Positions 12,280-59,949 of a stretch of DNA of 64,000 nt are shown here, one piece after another. Position 1 is the first letter of the stretch; each line of letters begins with the position of its first letter. Location of the stretch: assembly GCF_013122565.1 (NCBI RefSeq), contig NZ_CP053258.1; one strand, given 5' to 3'. Made by a program: the position numbers and the translations under genes. The notes below the pieces were generated by a model, which saw only the letters and a program-made list of their open reading frames with translations, searched no databases and was not told the origin of the DNA. Source of the stretch: Escherichia coli. Lineage in GTDB: Bacteria > Pseudomonadota > Gammaproteobacteria > Enterobacterales > Enterobacteriaceae.

Positions 12280-13911
12280 TTAGTGCTTCACAATGTACAT
12301 ATTCCGGGTGTAGGTATTATCCAGCGGATCTTTGCCGGTATAGCCACCAACCCACGGTTTCACCAGACGCGCATTCACGTAGTAATAAACAGGAACAATG
12401 GCCGAATCCTTATCCAGCTGTTGTTCTGCTTTAGTGTACAGAGCTGTGCGCTGCGCCTCGTCAGTCACTTTCAGCGTTTCCGCCATAATGCTGTCAAAGG
12501 CCGGGCTCTTATAATGCGCGGTATTCATCGAGCTGTTCGACAGCATGGTGTTCAGGAAGGAAGTTGGTTCGTTATAGTCTGCACACCAGCCTGCACGGGC
12601 CACATCAAAAGTGCCCTGATGACGGGTGTCGAGGAACGTTTTCCACTCCTGGTTAACCAGTTTGACGTTTACACCAATGTTTTTCTTCCACAATGAAGAG
12701 GCAGCAATCGCCAGCTTTTTATGCAGATCGGAGGTGTTATACAACAGGTTGATGGTCAACGGTTTGTCTGCGGTATAACCCGCTTCAGCCAGCAGTTTTT
12801 TTGCTTCTTCGTTACGTTTTTCCTGGCTCCAGCCAAACCATTCCGGCTGAGTCAATTTTGCGCCATCAGTATACGGTGGAGTGTAACCATAGGCGGGCAT
12901 GTCGCCCTGTGCTTTCACTTTATTAACAATGATATCGCGGTCCATACCCAGTTTCAGTGCGGTACGCACACGCACATCGTTGAATGGCGGTTTCTGGTTG
13001 TTAATTTCGTAATAGTAAGTGCACAGGTATGGATCAACGTGAACTTCGTCCGGGATCTCTTTTTTCAGCTTCTGGAACAATTCGATCGGCATATTGTTAT
13101 ACGTCATGTCGATTTCACCACTACGGTAGCGGTTGACATCAGTAACTTCAGAAGCAATAGGCAAATAGGTTACCTGGTTAATAACGGTTTTCGCGTTGTT
13201 CCAGTAGGTCGGGCTGCGTTCAAGAACGATTCGTTCGTTTACGACCCAATCTTTTAAGGTATAGGCACCGTTGGTGACGATATTACCAGGCTGGGTCCAT
13301 TTTTCGCCGAATTTCTCGATAGCGGCTTTTGGCACCGGTGAAGTTGATGGGTGAACAAGTAATTTATAGAAGTACGGAACGGGTTCACTTAAGGTGACTT
13401 CTAATGTGTGATCATCAATAGCTTTCACGCCGAGATCGGTAATCGGTTTTTTCCCTTCAAGAATTTCATCAATACCGGCGATATGCCCATATTGCAGATA
13501 ACTGGCATACGGAGAAGCGGTGTTTGGATCAACAGAACGTTGCCAGCTATACACAAAGTCTTGTGCTGTGACTGGCGTGCCATCAGACCATTTCGCATCT
13601 TTACGCAAATGGAAGGTCCAGACTTTCGCGTCTTTATTATCCCAGGATTCAGCGACGCCAGGTGCCGGATGACCGTCAAGGTCGCTGACCAGTAAGCCTT
13701 CAAACAGGTCCCGGCTGATATTAGACTCCGGCACACCTTCAATTTTGTGCGGATCTAATGACTGAACTTCTGAACCATTGTTACGTACCAGCGTTTGTTT
13801 TTCCGCCAGTGTGACGCCTGCGGGTACATCAGCTGCCAGCGCGACATTCCCTGCCATTAGCGCAGCCAGAACGCCAGCTGCTACTAAACTTCTCTTGGTG
13901 ATGTTGGTCAT
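12280..13911 (-). CDS. oppA: Periplasmic oligopeptide-binding protein OppA (543-aa precursor)
   Basis: MTNITKRSLVAAGVLAALMAGNVALA signal peptide then family 5 solute-binding domain; track ORF extends 15 codons upstream. Confidence 0.95.
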   Translation of the reverse strand: MTNITKRSLVAAGVLAALMAGNVALAADVPAGVTLAEKQTLVRNNGSEVQSLDPHKIEGVPESNISRDLFEGLLVSDLDGHPAPGVAESWDNKDAKVWTFHLRKDAKWSDGTPVTAQDFVYSWQRSVDPNTASPYASYLQYGHIAGIDEILEGKKPITDLGVKAIDDHTLEVTLSEPVPYFYKLLVHPSTSPVPKAAIEKFGEKWTQPGNIVTNGAYTLKDWVVNERIVLERSPTYWNNAKTVINQVTYLPIASEVTDVNRYRSGEIDMTYNNMPIELFQKLKKEIPDEVHVDPYLCTYYYEINNQKPPFNDVRVRTALKLGMDRDIIVNKVKAQGDMPAYGYTPPYTDGAKLTQPEWFGWSQEKRNEEAKKLLAEAGYTADKPLTINLLYNTSDLHKKLAIAASSLWKKNIGVNVKLVNQEWKTFLDTRHQGTFDVARAGWCADYNEPTSFLNTMLSNSSMNTAHYKSPAFDSIMAETLKVTDEAQRTALYTKAEQQLDKDSAIVPVYYYVNARLVKPWVGGYTGKDPLDNTYTRNMYIVKH

Positions 13912-14647
13912 TGTTTTTTGGACTCCCTCATTATAATTACTGGTAGTAACCAGCATGTGTAATCCCGGATTGGGACCCTGTACAGGCTCGGAGACTTTCT
14001 GCTGTCAGGTTACTTTATCGTTACGGATTGCTATCACCGACTTTATTTATTCTGGTGATTCAGACGATCACCTTATGTCGATTCGTACTGTGTCTCCCCT
14101 GTCGAGACACATTATTCTTTCGCGACGCTCTTTAATTGTTAATTATTCTCATTACCAATAAAAATCGTCTGGCGGTTGCCCGGAAAGTACCAAATGCGCT
14201 TCTTGCTCGCCAATACATTTTGCAAAATTGTTAAGCAATTCTCTTTTATTGACCGCAGCAGAATCTATAGCTTGCATCCATGTCTTAACAAACATCTTTC
14301 AATTCAATCAAATAGAGATTGGTTAAGCATGTCTATCTTTTCTGATTACAGTTCCCGTAGTGAAATGCACAATAATTTAACAATTGATTATTATTTAGCA
14401 CTTTCCTCTGCCAAAGGCAGTGGAATTACTAATATCATTTCAATTATTCTTCAGCAAGCCCAGGATTATGATGTGGTGAAAATAACATGATGGTGAGGAG
14501 AAGCAGTTAAGGAAATCCTTATAACTAACTGTAATTTGAGAAGAATATTTTTACCTATTCCTTTTGCTTTTGATAACTGCGTAGGAACAAAGTAAAAATA
14601 ATGACGAAGTAAACGGAGCATGGCGGCTCCGTTTCATTTGAAAGGAA

Positions 14648-15295
14648 TTAATTAAGCAGGCCGGGGAAAATCCCCTTAATACCAGTAACGATAAATTCAA
14701 TCCCCAATGCCATCAGCAATAGCCCCATAATACGCGTAATCACGTTGATGCCGGTCTGGCGTAAAACCCGTACCAGCCACGGTGCCATGCGGAACAATCC
14801 CCAGCAACATAAAGCGAACAACGCAATAGCCACAAAGAAACCAAACAGATAGCTAATGCTGTGATAACGCGTACCCCAGACGATGGTAGAACTGATCGCC
14901 CCTGGCCCCGCCATCAACGGCAACGCCAATGGCACCACACCAATGCTTTCACGTACCGCGGTTTCTGATTTTTCTTGCTTGTTCTGTTTATCCTCACCAA
15001 GCTTGCCGCTGATCATCGACATCGCTATTGTCACCACCAGGATGCCACCGGCGATACGGAATGAATCAATTGATATACCAAAAAGTTGTAGAATCGTGTC
15101 GCCGAGAAAAAGCGAGATCCACAAGATAATGGCCACAGACAGGTTGGCTGTAAGGTTAGTTTTGTTTCGCGCTGCCGCTGTCTGATAACTGGTCATGCTG
15201 ATAAAGACGGGAATAATCCCTACCGGGTTGACCAGCGCAAATAACCCGATGAAAAATTTGAAGTAAACGGGAAAATCAAAAAGGGTCTGAATCAC
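14648..15295 (-). CDS. ychE: MarC-family (UPF0056) inner membrane protein YchE
   Basis: 215-aa multi-TM ORF, recognised; synteny. Confidence 0.9.
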   Translation of the reverse strand: MIQTLFDFPVYFKFFIGLFALVNPVGIIPVFISMTSYQTAAARNKTNLTANLSVAIILWISLFLGDTILQLFGISIDSFRIAGGILVVTIAMSMISGKLGEDKQNKQEKSETAVRESIGVVPLALPLMAGPGAISSTIVWGTRYHSISYLFGFFVAIALFALCCWGLFRMAPWLVRVLRQTGINVITRIMGLLLMALGIEFIVTGIKGIFPGLLN

Positions 15296-54359: not shown

Positions 54360-55451
54360 ATGGGATTCAAATGCGGTATCGTCGGTTTGCCCAACGTCGG
54401 GAAATCTACCCTGTTCAACGCGCTGACCAAAGCCGGTATTGAAGCGGCCAACTTTCCATTCTGCACCATTGAGCCAAACACAGGCGTCGTACCAATGCCT
54501 GATCCTCGCCTGGATCAACTGGCTGAAATCGTAAAACCGCAACGTACGCTTCCCACGACCATGGAATTTGTCGATATCGCCGGTCTGGTAAAAGGCGCAT
54601 CGAAAGGCGAAGGTCTGGGTAACCAGTTCCTGACTAACATCCGTGAAACCGAAGCGATCGGTCACGTTGTTCGCTGCTTTGAAAATGACAACATCATTCA
54701 CGTTTCCGGCAAAGTTAACCCAGCGGACGATATTGAAGTTATCAACACCGAACTGGCGCTGGCAGACCTCGACACCTGCGAACGTGCGATTCATCGCGTA
54801 CAGAAGAAAGCCAAAGGTGGCGATAAAGACGCGAAAGCTGAGCTGGCGGTACTGGAAAAATGCCTGCCGCAGCTGGAAAACGCAGGTATGCTGCGCGCGC
54901 TGGATTTAAGCGCTGAAGAGAAAGCGGCTATTCGTTACCTGAGCTTCCTGACGCTGAAACCAACAATGTACATCGCCAACGTTAACGAAGACGGTTTTGA
55001 AAACAACCCGTATCTTGACCAGGTGCGTGAAATCGCGGCGAAAGAAGGTTCTGTTGTGGTTCCGGTTTGTGCTGCTGTTGAAGCAGACATTGCCGAACTG
55101 GACGACGAAGAACGTGACGAGTTTATGCAGGAGCTTGGGCTGGAAGAGCCGGGCCTGAACCGTGTGATCCGTGCCGGTTATAAGCTGCTGAACCTGCAAA
55201 CTTACTTCACCGCTGGAGTGAAAGAAGTGCGTGCATGGACAATTCCGGTTGGTGCAACCGCGCCGCAGGCAGCGGGCAAAATCCATACTGATTTTGAAAA
55301 AGGCTTTATCCGTGCACAAACCATCTCGTTTGAAGATTTCATCACTTACAAAGGTGAACAAGGCGCGAAAGAAGCAGGCAAAATGCGTGCAGAAGGTAAA
55401 GATTACATCGTTAAAGATGGCGATGTGATGAACTTCCTTTTCAACGTCTAA
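54360..55451 (+). CDS. ychF: Ribosome-binding ATPase YchF (Obg-family)
   Basis: 363-aa [26 protein letters not shown] with P-loop and C-terminal TGS domain. Confidence 0.97.
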
Positions 55452-55507
55452 TTAATTTGTTGTCTCATGAGGTTTCGCTAAATCTCATGAAGAGCGCAAA
55501 AGTATAT

Positions 55508-55536
55508 AAAATCCACGCAATTGCGTGGATTTTTCA
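55508..55536 (+). terminator. Rho-independent terminator of pth-ychF
   Basis: Perfect palindrome atccacgcaattgcgtggat followed by ttttt. Confidence 0.85.
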
Positions 55537-56295
55537 TTTCACCGAGTCCTAACCATTCTTGTAACATCCTACACTTTTGTGCTTATTGCCTACAGTGACC
55601 ACGAGAATAATTAAAGACATAAGTGTTCAGATGACGGATATCTCATTAGCAGTGGATATAACGTAAGTTTGTGTTCCACTACACATCAGCCCTCTTCACA
55701 GCTGATCAATATTGATCACGCTCCAATATGCTGGCGAGAAAAGGACTTACCTGAAGGGTAATATCCCGCAGATAAAGTCCCCGAATAACGAGATTACGTG
55801 CGATCCTGGCAAGATGAAAATGATAACCAATAGCACGATAATAACGATATGCCAGAAAATCCATTGATCAAAAATGAATATCGATGTTTTTTGCTTTTTC
55901 TTATTAGTAATGCAAAAATGGCGCATATTGTTTTTGTTATGCAGATACATCAAGCGAAAATCCCATAACTAATTAGGATTATTACCAAAAAATATTCACC
56001 AAATTATTTAACCGCTGTTTGTTGTAATGTTTTTGTCATATTCATAGTAACGAATTGGAATAAGTAACGACAACTTAGGGAATAACTCGATCTAAACTCA
56101 CCTTTGTAAGGGGGATGTTAAATATATATTAATTCCTGTGTTCCTGATTTTGCCCGGTAATAGAGAATTATTCTCAGAGAAGCTCATCATGATTGCACCA
56201 TACAAATATCATGATGATAAGAGGATATTATTCATTGACTTAAACAAAATGACAAAATCCATAGACCCATAGCCTGGGTACTATATAGGAGTGGT

Positions 56296-59181
56296 ATGGG
56301 CATCAAACAACACAATGGGAATACCAAAGCCGATCGTCTCGCTGAATTAAAAATCCGTTCGCCCTCAATTCAACTGATAAAATTTGGCGCTATTGGTTTG
56401 AATGCAATTATCTTTTCCCCCCTGCTGATAGCTGCTGATACAGGAAGTCAATATGGCACCAATATTACTATTAATGATGGTGACAGAATTACAGGAGATA
56501 CCGCCGATCCATCAGGAAACCTCTATGGTGTAATGACCCCAGCAGGAAACACGCCTGGCAATATCAACCTGGGTAATGATGTCACCGTCAATGTCAACGA
56601 CGCCTCTGGATATGCAAAAGGAATCATTATTCAGGGCAAAAACAGCTCCCTGACAGCTAACCGACTCACAGTAGATGTTGTTGGTCAAACCTCTGCCATC
56701 GGCATTAATTTAATTGGTGACTATACCCATGCTGACTTAGGCACAGGCAGCACCATTAAGAGTAACGATGACGGCATCATTATTGGGCATAGCTCAACAC
56801 TAACAGCCACTCAATTCACCATTGAAAACTCGAACGGTATAGGCCTAACCATCAATGACTATGGCACCAGTGTCGATCTTGGAAGCGGAAGTAAAATCAA
56901 GACCGATGGAAGTACAGGTGTTTATATCGGTGGTCTCAACGGCAATAACGCCAATGGTGCTGCGCGTTTTACGGCGACAGACCTGACAATCGATGTTCAG
57001 GGCTACAGCGCCATGGGGATAAACGTACAGAAAAACTCTGTTGTCGATCTCGGAACAAACAGTTCCATTAAAACCAGTGGCGATAATGCACACGGCCTCT
57101 GGAGCTTTGGCCAGGTTAGCGCGAATGCACTCACTGTTGATGTAACTGGAGCCGCGGCCAATGGCATCGAAGTTCGTGGTGGTACAACCACTATCGGTGC
57201 AGATAGCCATATTTCTTCCGCGCAGGGCGGTGGTCTCGTAGCCAGTGGTTCAGACGCGACAATCAATTTTTCTGGCACGGCAGCGCAACGAAACAGCATC
57301 TTTTCCGGCGGTTCTTATGGTGCATCAGCCCAGACGGCAACGGCTGTTATCAACATGCAAAATACCGATATTACGGTTGATCGTAATGGCAGTCTGGCGC
57401 TGGGGTTGTGGGCGCTCAGCGGCGGTAGAATAACCGGAGACAGTTTGGCTATCACCGGCGCGGCAGGAGCCAGGGGGATTTATGCCATGACCAACAGCCA
57501 GATCGATCTCACGAGCGATCTGGTCATTGATATGAGTACACCCGACCAGATGGCCATCGCAACGCAACATGACGATGGTTATGCCGCCAGCCGCATCAAC
57601 GCCTCGGGTCGTATGCTTATCAACGGTAGCGTTCTCTCCAAAGGTGGGCTAATCAATCTGGATATGCACCCTGGGTCGGTTTGGACAGGTTCCTCCCTCA
57701 GCGATAATGTCAATGGCGGGAAACTGGACGTTGCAATGAATAACAGCGTCTGGAACGTAACAAGTAATTCTAATCTCGACACGCTGGCGCTGAGCCATTC
57801 AACTGTCGATTTTGCCAGCCACGGGTCAACTGCCGGCACATTTACCACATTAAACGTAGAGAACCTGAGCGGTAACAGTACCTTTATTATGCGTGCTGAT
57901 GTTGTTGGCGAGGGTAATGGCGTTAATAATAAAGGGGATTTATTGAATATCAGCGGGAGTAGTGCTGGTAATCACGTATTGGCTATCCGCAACCAGGGCA
58001 GCGAGGCCACTACGGGAAATGAAGTTCTGACAGTGGTAAAAACCACTGACGGTGCGGCCTCGTTCAGCGCGTCTTCTCAGGTTGAGTTGGGAGGATATCT
58101 GTACGATGTGCGTAAAAATGGCACTAACTGGGAGCTTTACGCTTCCGGGACAATTCCGGAGCCGACTCCAAATCCTGAACCAACGCCGGCTCCCGCTCAG
58201 CCTCCCATAGTCAACCCCGATCCTACGCCTGAACCCGATCCTACGCCTACCCCCACTCCCACACCTAAACCCACCACGACCGCAGATGCTGGCGGCAATT
58301 ATCTCAATGTCGGTTATTTATTGAACTATGTTGAAAACCGTACGCTGATGCAACGGATGGGTGACCTGCGAAATCAGAGTAAAGACGGTAATATCTGGCT
58401 GCGCAGTTATGGGGGAAGCCTGGACTCCTTCGCCAGTGGCAAACTTAGCGGCTTTGACATGGGTTACAGCGGTATCCAGTTTGGTGGGGATAAACGTCTC
58501 TCTGATGTAATGCCGTTGTATGTCGGTCTGTATATTGGCTCAACACATGCATCGCCGGACTATAGCGGAGGCGACGGTACCGCACGTTCAGACTACATGG
58601 GAATGTACGCCAGTTACATGGCACACAACGGTTTTTACAGCGATCTCGTTGTAAAAGCATCGCGCCAGAAAAATAGCTTCCACGTACTGGACAGTCAGAA
58701 CAACGGCGTTAACGCCAACGGCACTGCGAATGGATTGAGCATCTCCCTGGAAGCCGGGCAGAGGTTCAACCTGACCCCTACTGGTTATGGGTTCTATATA
58801 GAGCCGCAAACCCAGCTCACATACAGCCACCAGAATGAGATGGCTATGAAGGCGAGTAATGGTCTCAATATACATCTGAATCACTACGAATCGCTGCTGG
58901 GGCGTGCCAGTATGATACTGGGATATGACATCACCGCAGGCAACAGCCAGCTGAATATGTATGTGAAGACTGGCGCTATCCGCGAGTTTTCAGGGGATAC
59001 AGAATATCTGTTGAACAACTCCCGGGAGAAGTACAGTTTCAAAGGTAATGGCTGGAATAACGGCGTGGGAGTCAGTGCACAGTATAACAAACAGCACACA
59101 TTCTACCTCGAAGCGGATTACACGCAGGGTAACCTCTTTGATCAGAAGCAAGTCAACGGAGGATATCGCTTCAGCTTTTAA
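56296..59181 (+). CDS. ycgV: Type Va autotransporter adhesin (YcgV-like): passenger beta-helix, Pro/Thr linker, C-terminal beta-barrel
   Basis: 961-aa ORF with repetitive G/T/N/S-rich passenger, PEPTPNPEPTP...TPTPTPTPKP linker, and barrel ending in aromatic-terminal GGYRFSF. Confidence 0.9.
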   Translation: MGIKQHNGNTKADRLAELKIRSPSIQLIKFGAIGLNAIIFSPLLIAADTGSQYGTNITINDGDRITGDTADPSGNLYGVMTPAGNTPGNINLGNDVTVNVNDASGYAKGIIIQGKNSSLTANRLTVDVVGQTSAIGINLIGDYTHADLGTGSTIKSNDDGIIIGHSSTLTATQFTIENSNGIGLTINDYGTSVDLGSGSKIKTDGSTGVYIGGLNGNNANGAARFTATDLTIDVQGYSAMGINVQKNSVVDLGTNSSIKTSGDNAHGLWSFGQVSANALTVDVTGAAANGIEVRGGTTTIGADSHISSAQGGGLVASGSDATINFSGTAAQRNSIFSGGSYGASAQTATAVINMQNTDITVDRNGSLALGLWALSGGRITGDSLAITGAAGARGIYAMTNSQIDLTSDLVIDMSTPDQMAIATQHDDGYAASRINASGRMLINGSVLSKGGLINLDMHPGSVWTGSSLSDNVNGGKLDVAMNNSVWNVTSNSNLDTLALSHSTVDFASHGSTAGTFTTLNVENLSGNSTFIMRADVVGEGNGVNNKGDLLNISGSSAGNHVLAIRNQGSEATTGNEVLTVVKTTDGAASFSASSQVELGGYLYDVRKNGTNWELYASGTIPEPTPNPEPTPAPAQPPIVNPDPTPEPDPTPTPTPTPKPTTTADAGGNYLNVGYLLNYVENRTLMQRMGDLRNQSKDGNIWLRSYGGSLDSFASGKLSGFDMGYSGIQFGGDKRLSDVMPLYVGLYIGSTHASPDYSGGDGTARSDYMGMYASYMAHNGFYSDLVVKASRQKNSFHVLDSQNNGVNANGTANGLSISLEAGQRFNLTPTGYGFYIEPQTQLTYSHQNEMAMKASNGLNIHLNHYESLLGRASMILGYDITAGNSQLNMYVKTGAIREFSGDTEYLLNNSREKYSFKGNGWNNGVGVSAQYNKQHTFYLEADYTQGNLFDQKQVNGGYRFSF

Positions 59182-59394
59182 GTACGGGGTAGACAAGCCC
59201 TTAAACGATGCTGAAAAATGTTAGCGTGCGCCGGAATGAAATATAGATCATCCTGGTGTAATTAAGATCATGCGGAGGTGCGTCAACGCCTCCGCGCCTT
59301 TCACCAAAAAGTCATTGATGGAGGGGCAGGGTGATTACTCAGTCTCATTGGAATAATCTTTGTAAATTAACAAACTTGATCGTAAGGATATCAG

Positions 59395-59688
59395 ATGGCT
59401 ATTACCTATATCGTTGTTTTAACCTATGTAAAACCACTCAGCGAAGTCGATGAGCAAATTCCGGCTCATATCGAATGGTTAAAAAAAGGTTATTCAGATG
59501 GTGTTTTTCTCGCATCTGGAAGAAGAGTACCCCGCAATGGGGGCATCATTCTAGCTCAATGCAATGATATTCATGCTTTAGAACAACGCCTGAGTCAGGA
59601 TCCATTCCGAAAGAGTGGGATCGCGGAGTCAGTAATTATTCCGTTTGAAGCCAGTATGAAATCAGAAGCATTACAGGATATTTTTTAG
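59395..59688 (+). CDS. YciI-family (Dabb-like) small protein, 97 aa
   Basis: ATG at 59395 preceded by aaggatatcag; product ITYIVVLTYVKPLSEVDEQIPAHIEWLKKGY...DPFRKSGIAESVIIPFEA parallels yciI motifs (PAHxxxL, DPY/F, VxPF). Confidence 0.7.
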   Translation: MAITYIVVLTYVKPLSEVDEQIPAHIEWLKKGYSDGVFLASGRRVPRNGGIILAQCNDIHALEQRLSQDPFRKSGIAESVIIPFEASMKSEALQDIF

Positions 59689-59949
59689 TTATCACATGGA
59701 TGAGGTGAACCATCGATTTGGTTCAACTCACCGAAATAATTACACCTATTACGTGGTGGGTAAATGCGAACGTTATCGTGCCACAGAACCGGCCTGTATA
59801 ACTATTTTCAGATAAGCTCCTGCCGATAATTCTGCGGATCATGATATTCTTGACTATCTATCGTCAGTTATCACCCGTGATTTACTGCTTAGATACCGGT
59901 GAGGACTAAAAAACTATTATGTGGCGCACATAATGATTTTTTCTATCTT

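Follow-up and report, generated by a model that had tools for sequence, protein, structure and literature searches.

Organisation of the ychF-ycgV locus

In the E. coli window analysed here (a stretch of 64,000 nucleotides), the genes are arranged in the order pth, ychF, an 844-bp spacer, ycgV and, on the minus strand, dhaR. The features of this locus are listed in Table 1. The ycgV gene encodes an autotransporter adhesin and is preceded by a Shine-Dalgarno sequence, AGGAG, at positions 56287-56291. The initial annotation had described the DNA ahead of ycgV as strongly AT-rich, and this was confirmed: the G+C content of the 759 bp in front of the gene is 0.356 compared to 0.496 for the whole window, only 0.3% of all 759-bp segments are as low, and the minimum (0.30) falls at 55800-56100. 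The only other part of the window with a G+C content of at most 0.40 over 759 bp is 13851-14860, the long stretch between oppA and ychE that lies upstream of oppA.

Table 1. Features of the ychF-ycgV locus (positions of the window)
Feature	Position	Strand	Description
ychF	54360-55451	+	
Full ychF-ycgV spacer	55452-56295		844 bp, G+C 0.355
ychF terminator hairpin	55508..55533	+	13-nt perfect inverted repeat followed by a T run; just left of 55537-56295
AT-rich spacer upstream of ycgV	55537..56295		759 bp, G+C 0.356
Decayed IS6/IS26-family transposase fragment	55699..55840	+	residues ~132-187; one frameshift, small deletions
Segment missing from K-12-type alleles	55731..55805		75 bp; from alignments
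ORF with hydrophobic stretch	55747..55953	-	68 codons from TTG; judged a chance, non-coding ORF
Equivalent of K-12 promoter island 1255333_301	55837..56138		most AT-rich part, G+C 0.30-0.34
ycgV-proximal regulatory region, travels with ycgV	55956..56295	+	collinear blastn blocks, alignment
Equivalent of the 126-bp YbdO EMSA probe	56170..56295	+	primers of PMC11681634 located in the window
ycgV autotransporter adhesin gene	56296..59181	+	961 aa

When complete E. coli genomes were searched with megablast, the spacer was found in 4726 of 5426, and in 4091 of these at a coverage of at least 80%. The best match was only 98.3% identical and the window therefore carries its own allele of the spacer. 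The counterpart in the RefSeq sequence of K-12 MG1655 (1255953-1256720) is 768 bp long and holds no annotated feature; none was annotated under the spacer match either in 30 genomes listed across the identity ranking. Paralogues of the spacer were found neither in the window nor in the B2 island, and a phage collection gave no match. In a plasmid collection nine long matches were obtained (92-100% of the query), all of them to E. coli sequences that had been classed as plasmids; three of these, at more than 4.7 Mb, are clearly chromosomes.

Variable gene content between ychF and dhaR

About 700 of the 5426 E. coli genomes lack both the spacer and ycgV. In ST131-type strains the similarity to the window is lost directly downstream of the ychF terminator (query positions 3-89), and in one such strain ycgV is replaced by a 26-kb island in the ychF-dhaR slot (NZ_CP019008.1 2895000-2940000, about 400-26600). 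This island carries two tyrosine recombinases (integrases), IS3 and IS91 remnants, a reverse transcriptase of the retron Ec67 family and an ABC-three-component system. The variable ychF-dhaR slot, in which ycgV is accessory DNA, acts as a hotspot of defence and adhesin islands. A Citrobacter MAG and Leminorella have homologues of ycgV, with 80% and 60% identity, respectively, and in each case the gene neighbourhood is a different one. The region 55956-56295 is patchily conserved upstream of the Citrobacter gene. According to reviews that cite Roux et al. (2005), YcgV promotes adhesion and biofilm formation.

Three further observations were made around ycgV. First, the gene is flagged as a pseudogene (frameshift, internal stop or truncation) in 5 of 15 fetched E. 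coli genomes, O157:H7 included. Such a pattern would fit a cryptic gene that is only weakly selected, and some of the frameshifts are maybe assembly errors. Second, about 690 bp between the stops of ycgV and dhaR (59261-59949) are missing from K-12 and strain 190, in which just the first 79 nt downstream of ycgV align with the window. This DNA appears to be further accessory cargo of the ychF-dhaR slot, additional to ycgV; an ORF at 59395..59688 (plus strand, 97 aa) has a YCII-related domain (Pfam E = 1.2e-13). Third, contigs labelled as an 'Actinomycetes bacterium' MAG and as Nocardioides malaquae contain ychF-ycgV DNA that is 97-100% identical to E. coli, with a K-12-type spacer, and are almost certainly assemblies contaminated with E. 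coli.

Properties of the 68-codon minus-strand ORF

The initial annotation had also reported a minus-strand ORF with a hydrophobic stretch, which is present exactly as stated (Table 1). Counted from the adjacent ATG at 55950 the ORF has 67 codons, and its hydrophobic stretch is IFWHIVIIVLLVIIFILPG. The spacer was shuffled 2000 times with its dinucleotides preserved; the longest ORF then had a mean length of 65 codons (sd 17.5), and one of at least 68 codons was obtained with P = 0.38. Unlike the AT-rich composition, the length of the ORF is thus what is expected by chance. Over 19 residues the Kyte-Doolittle mean of the ORF reached 2.97 (P = 0.002 in shuffles), which predicts a transmembrane helix, and T was found at 49% of its second codon positions.

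A hydrophobic stretch that is so rare in shuffles speaks for a genuine protein, namely a young inner-membrane protein restricted to E. coli and Shigella, with a core of about 49 residues and one transmembrane helix, that would be made only when H-NS silencing is lifted. A weak GGGA, which precedes the ATG by about 10 nt, also fits such a protein. Its pairing energy of -4.0 kcal/mol, the best that we found for the ORF, lies between the median for random sites (-2.2) and that for long ORFs (-4.8), so that the earlier remark that the ORF has no convincing Shine-Dalgarno sequence was a fair one. In addition, the ORF is labelled 'membrane protein' in some submitters' annotations. We nevertheless consider a young membrane protein very unlikely. 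The length of the ORF is no greater than chance would give, and neither RefSeq for K-12 nor PGAP annotates anything at 55747..55953. The peptide string did not occur in a full-text literature search.

Relatives of the ORF were found only at its own locus. A word-indexed search of 5.8 billion proteins yielded 91 matches and an exhaustive phmmer scan of 1.84 billion representative proteins yielded 14, all of which are alleles of the same E. coli/Shigella locus; in the phmmer scan no homologue was found outside E. coli/Shigella, which again argues against a young membrane protein. Frameshifts, stop loss and deletions make the matches vary in length from 49 to 103 residues. Searches of the ORF and of two plus-strand ORFs against Pfam and NCBIfam gave noise and no family. 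The collinearity of the Citrobacter MAG with the E. coli spacer is limited to about 55956-56295 and begins immediately outside the ORF, and in the region upstream of the Citrobacter ycgV no trace of the ORF was detected by tblastn.

Small size, hydrophobicity, an intergenic location and a narrow distribution characterise the known type I toxins. The ORF shares all of these features and might in principle encode such a peptide, repressed by an antisense RNA. We regard this as extremely unlikely. An E-value scan of positions 55000-57000 against Rfam returned only two sub-threshold Leu_leader look-alikes, located on the ychF terminator, and no family on either strand beyond these. The ORF is present as a single copy, and neither the window nor the B2 island contains a paralogue of it. 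Moreover, no promoter-terminator unit for an antisense RNA was found: a terminator-like site on the ORF's own strand lies within the ORF and a promoter-like site lies on the opposite strand, so that the two do not form a pair. Finally, inactivated alleles of the ORF are common, and its sequence shows no constraint.

The distal spacer contains an IS6/IS26-family transposase relic

A previously unnoted transposase fragment is located in the distal spacer. In a sensitive blastn search against plasmids, positions 55765-55829 matched an IS6 transposase gene of Serratia (81.5% over 65 nt, E = 2e-7), which was the only match of the spacer outside E. coli. At a relaxed threshold, eleven more records from Salmonella, Klebsiella, Erwinia and Duffyella matched the same 65 nt at 74-77%, and those that are annotated are all IS6-family or 'transposase' genes. 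The alignment score was 41, compared to 11.4±1.2 (maximum 16) in shuffles. The homology follows one diagonal only, between about 55760 and 55835, with a robust nucleotide core at 55765-55830; beyond about 55840 a weak, non-significant trace continues on the same diagonal to about 55875. At the protein level, the stitched plus-strand translation aligned with residues 132-187 of the transposase (Smith-Waterman score 82, z = 9.3) with one frameshift and two short deletions. In this alignment, INIDHAP of the relic is opposite INTDKAP of the transposase, and QIKSPNNEITCDPGKMKMI is opposite QIKYRNNVIECDHGKLKRI.

When the stitched relic was searched against the profile HMMs of Pfam and NCBIfam, no IS6 model was matched, so the identification rests on BLAST and Smith-Waterman comparisons. 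An intact DDE transposase ORF was not found at the relic, which is frameshifted and has its homology confined to about 70-140 bp. Terminal inverted repeats around the relic were not found either. Given the lack of a family HMM score and of inverted repeats, the relic is a fragment and not an element.

The K-12-type allele is the result of a repeat-mediated 75-bp deletion within this IS6-family fragment. The missing segment is bounded by the direct repeats CTGGCGAGA (55731-55739) and CTGGCAAGA (55806-55814), and its loss takes away the last 19 codons and the stop of the ORF. The deletion was present in 5 of the 16 aligned sequences, K-12 being a carrier. In the complete genomes the segment was found in 1841 compared to 4091 that hold the spacer, which makes the deletion allele the commoner one (about 55% of spacer carriers). 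As the K-12 deletion falls inside the transposase fragment, the long allele is the ancestral one. The C-terminus of the ORF is replaced in most strains, which also speaks against a young membrane protein.

The last 94 of the 207 nt of the ORF (55747-55840, about 45%), including part of the hydrophobic stretch, are antisense to the relic. The second codon position of the ORF pairs with the first position of plus-strand ANN codons, which form the run AAG ATG AAA ATG ATA ACC AAT AGC ACG ATA ATA ACG ATA. Because the ORF is antisense to this run, which is partly relic, its second positions are rich in T and a run of Ile, Val, Leu and Phe results. Likewise, the third-position G+C of the ORF is higher because the wobble positions of both frames coincide. 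The periodicity of the ORF is hence explained by the relic on the opposite strand, a further argument against a membrane protein. It is also conceivable that the antisense of the IS6 relic has given rise to a gene in the making, an E. coli-specific small membrane peptide with a functional N-terminal core of 49 residues and a variable C-terminus that would be translated only upon relief of the H-NS silencing of the ycgV region, which we judge to be highly improbable.

The ORF evolves like its non-coding surroundings

To compare alleles, 13 sequences taken at even intervals from the identity ranking, and thus selected without regard to the ORF, were combined with K-12 and the best match. This is a small sample of 15 haplotypes, with 16 sequences aligned. 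The ORF contained 21 variable sites, distributed over the first, second and third codon positions as 11:3:7. Among the 15 haplotypes, about 16 nonsynonymous changes and one nonsense change were counted compared to 6 synonymous ones; in the first 50 codons the numbers were about 13 and 3. Within the hydrophobic 'helix', His35 is changed to Pro, Leu or Ser among the sampled alleles. Disrupted alleles in the 16 sequences comprised one with a stop at W31, one with a 1-bp frameshift and two with the stop changed to Gln. The first 49 codons, including the hydrophobic stretch, were open in 15 of the 16 sequences, which speaks for a young membrane protein with a core of this length.

In the ORF frame the pN/pS ratio was 0.74 and the nucleotide diversity (pi) 0.032. 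The other five frames over the same interval gave pN/pS values of 0.31-1.72, two of them below that of the ORF frame, and pi in the flanking spacer was 0.033-0.043. The last 100 nt of ychF (pN/pS 0.00, pi 0.020) and the first 100 nt of ycgV (pN/pS 0.18, pi 0.016) served as comparison. Within the ycgV-proximal regulatory region, pi was lowest at the end next to ycgV (0.019 for 56138-56295), and the value for 55954-56137 (0.033) was no lower than that of the ORF. No frame-specific purifying selection on the ORF was seen in the 15 haplotypes, its ratio of 0.74 being indistinguishable from those of the other five frames, and a weak constraint may be compatible with a sample of this size.

A synonymous-substitution signal over 55747..55953 had been set beforehand as a test of the proposal that the ORF encodes a small membrane protein. 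With a pN/pS of 0.74 this signal is absent. Together with the broken or truncated ORF in many strains, this speaks against the proposal, and the accompanying caveat that the ORF may be noise turns out to be the better reading. A young membrane protein likewise is at odds with the missing frame-specific constraint, with a Pro in the helix and with the nonsense allele.

The AT-rich block corresponds to a K-12 promoter island reported to be bound by H-NS

The AT-rich block upstream of ycgV is already known and has been catalogued as bound by H-NS in K-12. Between ycgV and ychF of K-12, the 301-bp 'promoter island' 1255333_301 (U00096.2) has been listed as one of 78 such islands (PMC3661553, Table 1). 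It was associated with a predicted foreign gene, and it is marked as bound by H-NS 'according to all studies', these being the ChIP studies compiled there (column H = 'A'; PMC3661553). Promoter islands have been reported to bind RNA polymerase and yet to be transcriptionally suppressed (PMC3661553). The island was located in the window with a 777-bp shift between U00096.2 and U00096.3, which was checked against the coordinates of ycgV. The evidence for H-NS occupancy comes from a secondary compilation on K-12 and refers to that strain and not to the strain of the window.

It had been proposed that the AT-rich DNA ahead of ycgV is typical of H-NS-silenced adhesin promoters. The published K-12 island at 55837-56138 and the accessory status of ycgV support this idea. 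As ycgV and the AT-rich DNA upstream of it are accessory cargo in a variable slot, silencing by H-NS is to be expected, and from the literature we infer that ycgV is probably silenced in this way. The high-affinity H-NS motif TCGATAAATT, searched with up to two mismatches, was not enriched, and no copy was found inside 55537-56295. A scan of the spacer for terminators detected nothing above shuffles.

YbdO represses ycgV and shifts a 126-bp ycgV promoter probe in EMSA (PMC11681634). Inside the equivalent of this probe we observed a perfect 10-nt inverted repeat with a 14-nt spacer (56184-56193 and 56208-56217; TCATCATGAT ... ATCATGATGA). The repeat is invariant in three E. coli alleles (window, K-12 and strain 190) and not conserved in the upstream region of the Citrobacter ycgV. 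It could be an operator or a hairpin in the 5'-UTR.

A non-coding transcript might also start divergently from ycgV at 56255..56227 on the minus strand and run antisense across the ORF region, modulating ycgV and making the ORF incidental. At this position 10 of 12 nucleotides match a sigma-70 promoter. The reported binding of RNA polymerase to promoter islands (PMC3661553) and a genomic-SELEX peak of RNA polymerase holoenzyme listed for the ycgV-ychF spacer (PMC5493296) point in the same direction. However, sigma-70 consensus matches are fewer in the spacer than in shuffles (2 promoter-like sites compared to 4.7 in a simple scan, whereas the published island call used a different algorithm). 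The islands are also described as transcriptionally suppressed (PMC3661553), and the region is poorly conserved. Such a transcript is in our view very improbable.

Discussion

Taken together, the interval is very probably a non-coding ychF-ycgV spacer of three parts, in which the 68-codon ORF is a by-product and not a gene. The first part would be a fast-evolving distal spacer, from 55541 to about 55955, that holds the debris of an IS6/IS26-family transposase. The second, partly overlapping the first, would be the very AT-rich block at 55837-56138, which in K-12 is a promoter island occupied by H-NS. As suggested by the literature, H-NS would polymerise on such AT-rich foreign DNA and thereby keep the downstream gene silent. 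The third part, 55956-56295, appears to be more conserved and to move between genera with ycgV, and would carry the ycgV Shine-Dalgarno sequence and the published YbdO-binding fragment. The hydrophobic 'helix' of the ORF would then be the antisense, offset by one base, of a series of ANN codons that is partly relic.

The overall significance of this finding is small. The result for the ORF stops the further spread of a spurious 'membrane protein', which some submitter annotations already contain, and the AT-rich region upstream of ycgV is now tied to the existing literature on H-NS and promoter islands. The IS6 fragment and the 75-bp deletion may help studies on the silencing of ycgV or on the exchange of islands between ychF and dhaR.

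The AT-rich block resembles the published promoter islands in that it is the same locus as in K-12, is AT-rich, adjoins an accessory adhesin gene and is listed as bound by H-NS (PMC3661553). It differs from them in that the strain of the window has the long allele with an extra 75 bp, and in that the high density of promoter-like sites was not reproduced by a simple sigma-70 scan.

Like members of the IS6/IS26 family, the relic covers the INTDKAP and NNVIExDHxxLK regions of the transposase, and its core is 74-81.5% identical to several of them. In contrast to these members, only about 140 bp of an 820-bp element are left, the frame is broken, and Thr is found at the position of the catalytic Glu.

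Small membrane proteins and type I toxins that have been validated in E. coli, such as those of the Ldr, Ibs, ShoB and DinQ classes, are kept intact and conserved from strain to strain, and their translation or RNA partners are documented. The ORF is similar to these classes in its size, its single hydrophobic helix, its intergenic site and its narrow taxonomic range. Unlike them, it evolves in the same way as the non-coding DNA on either side of it, and many strains have a truncated or broken version.
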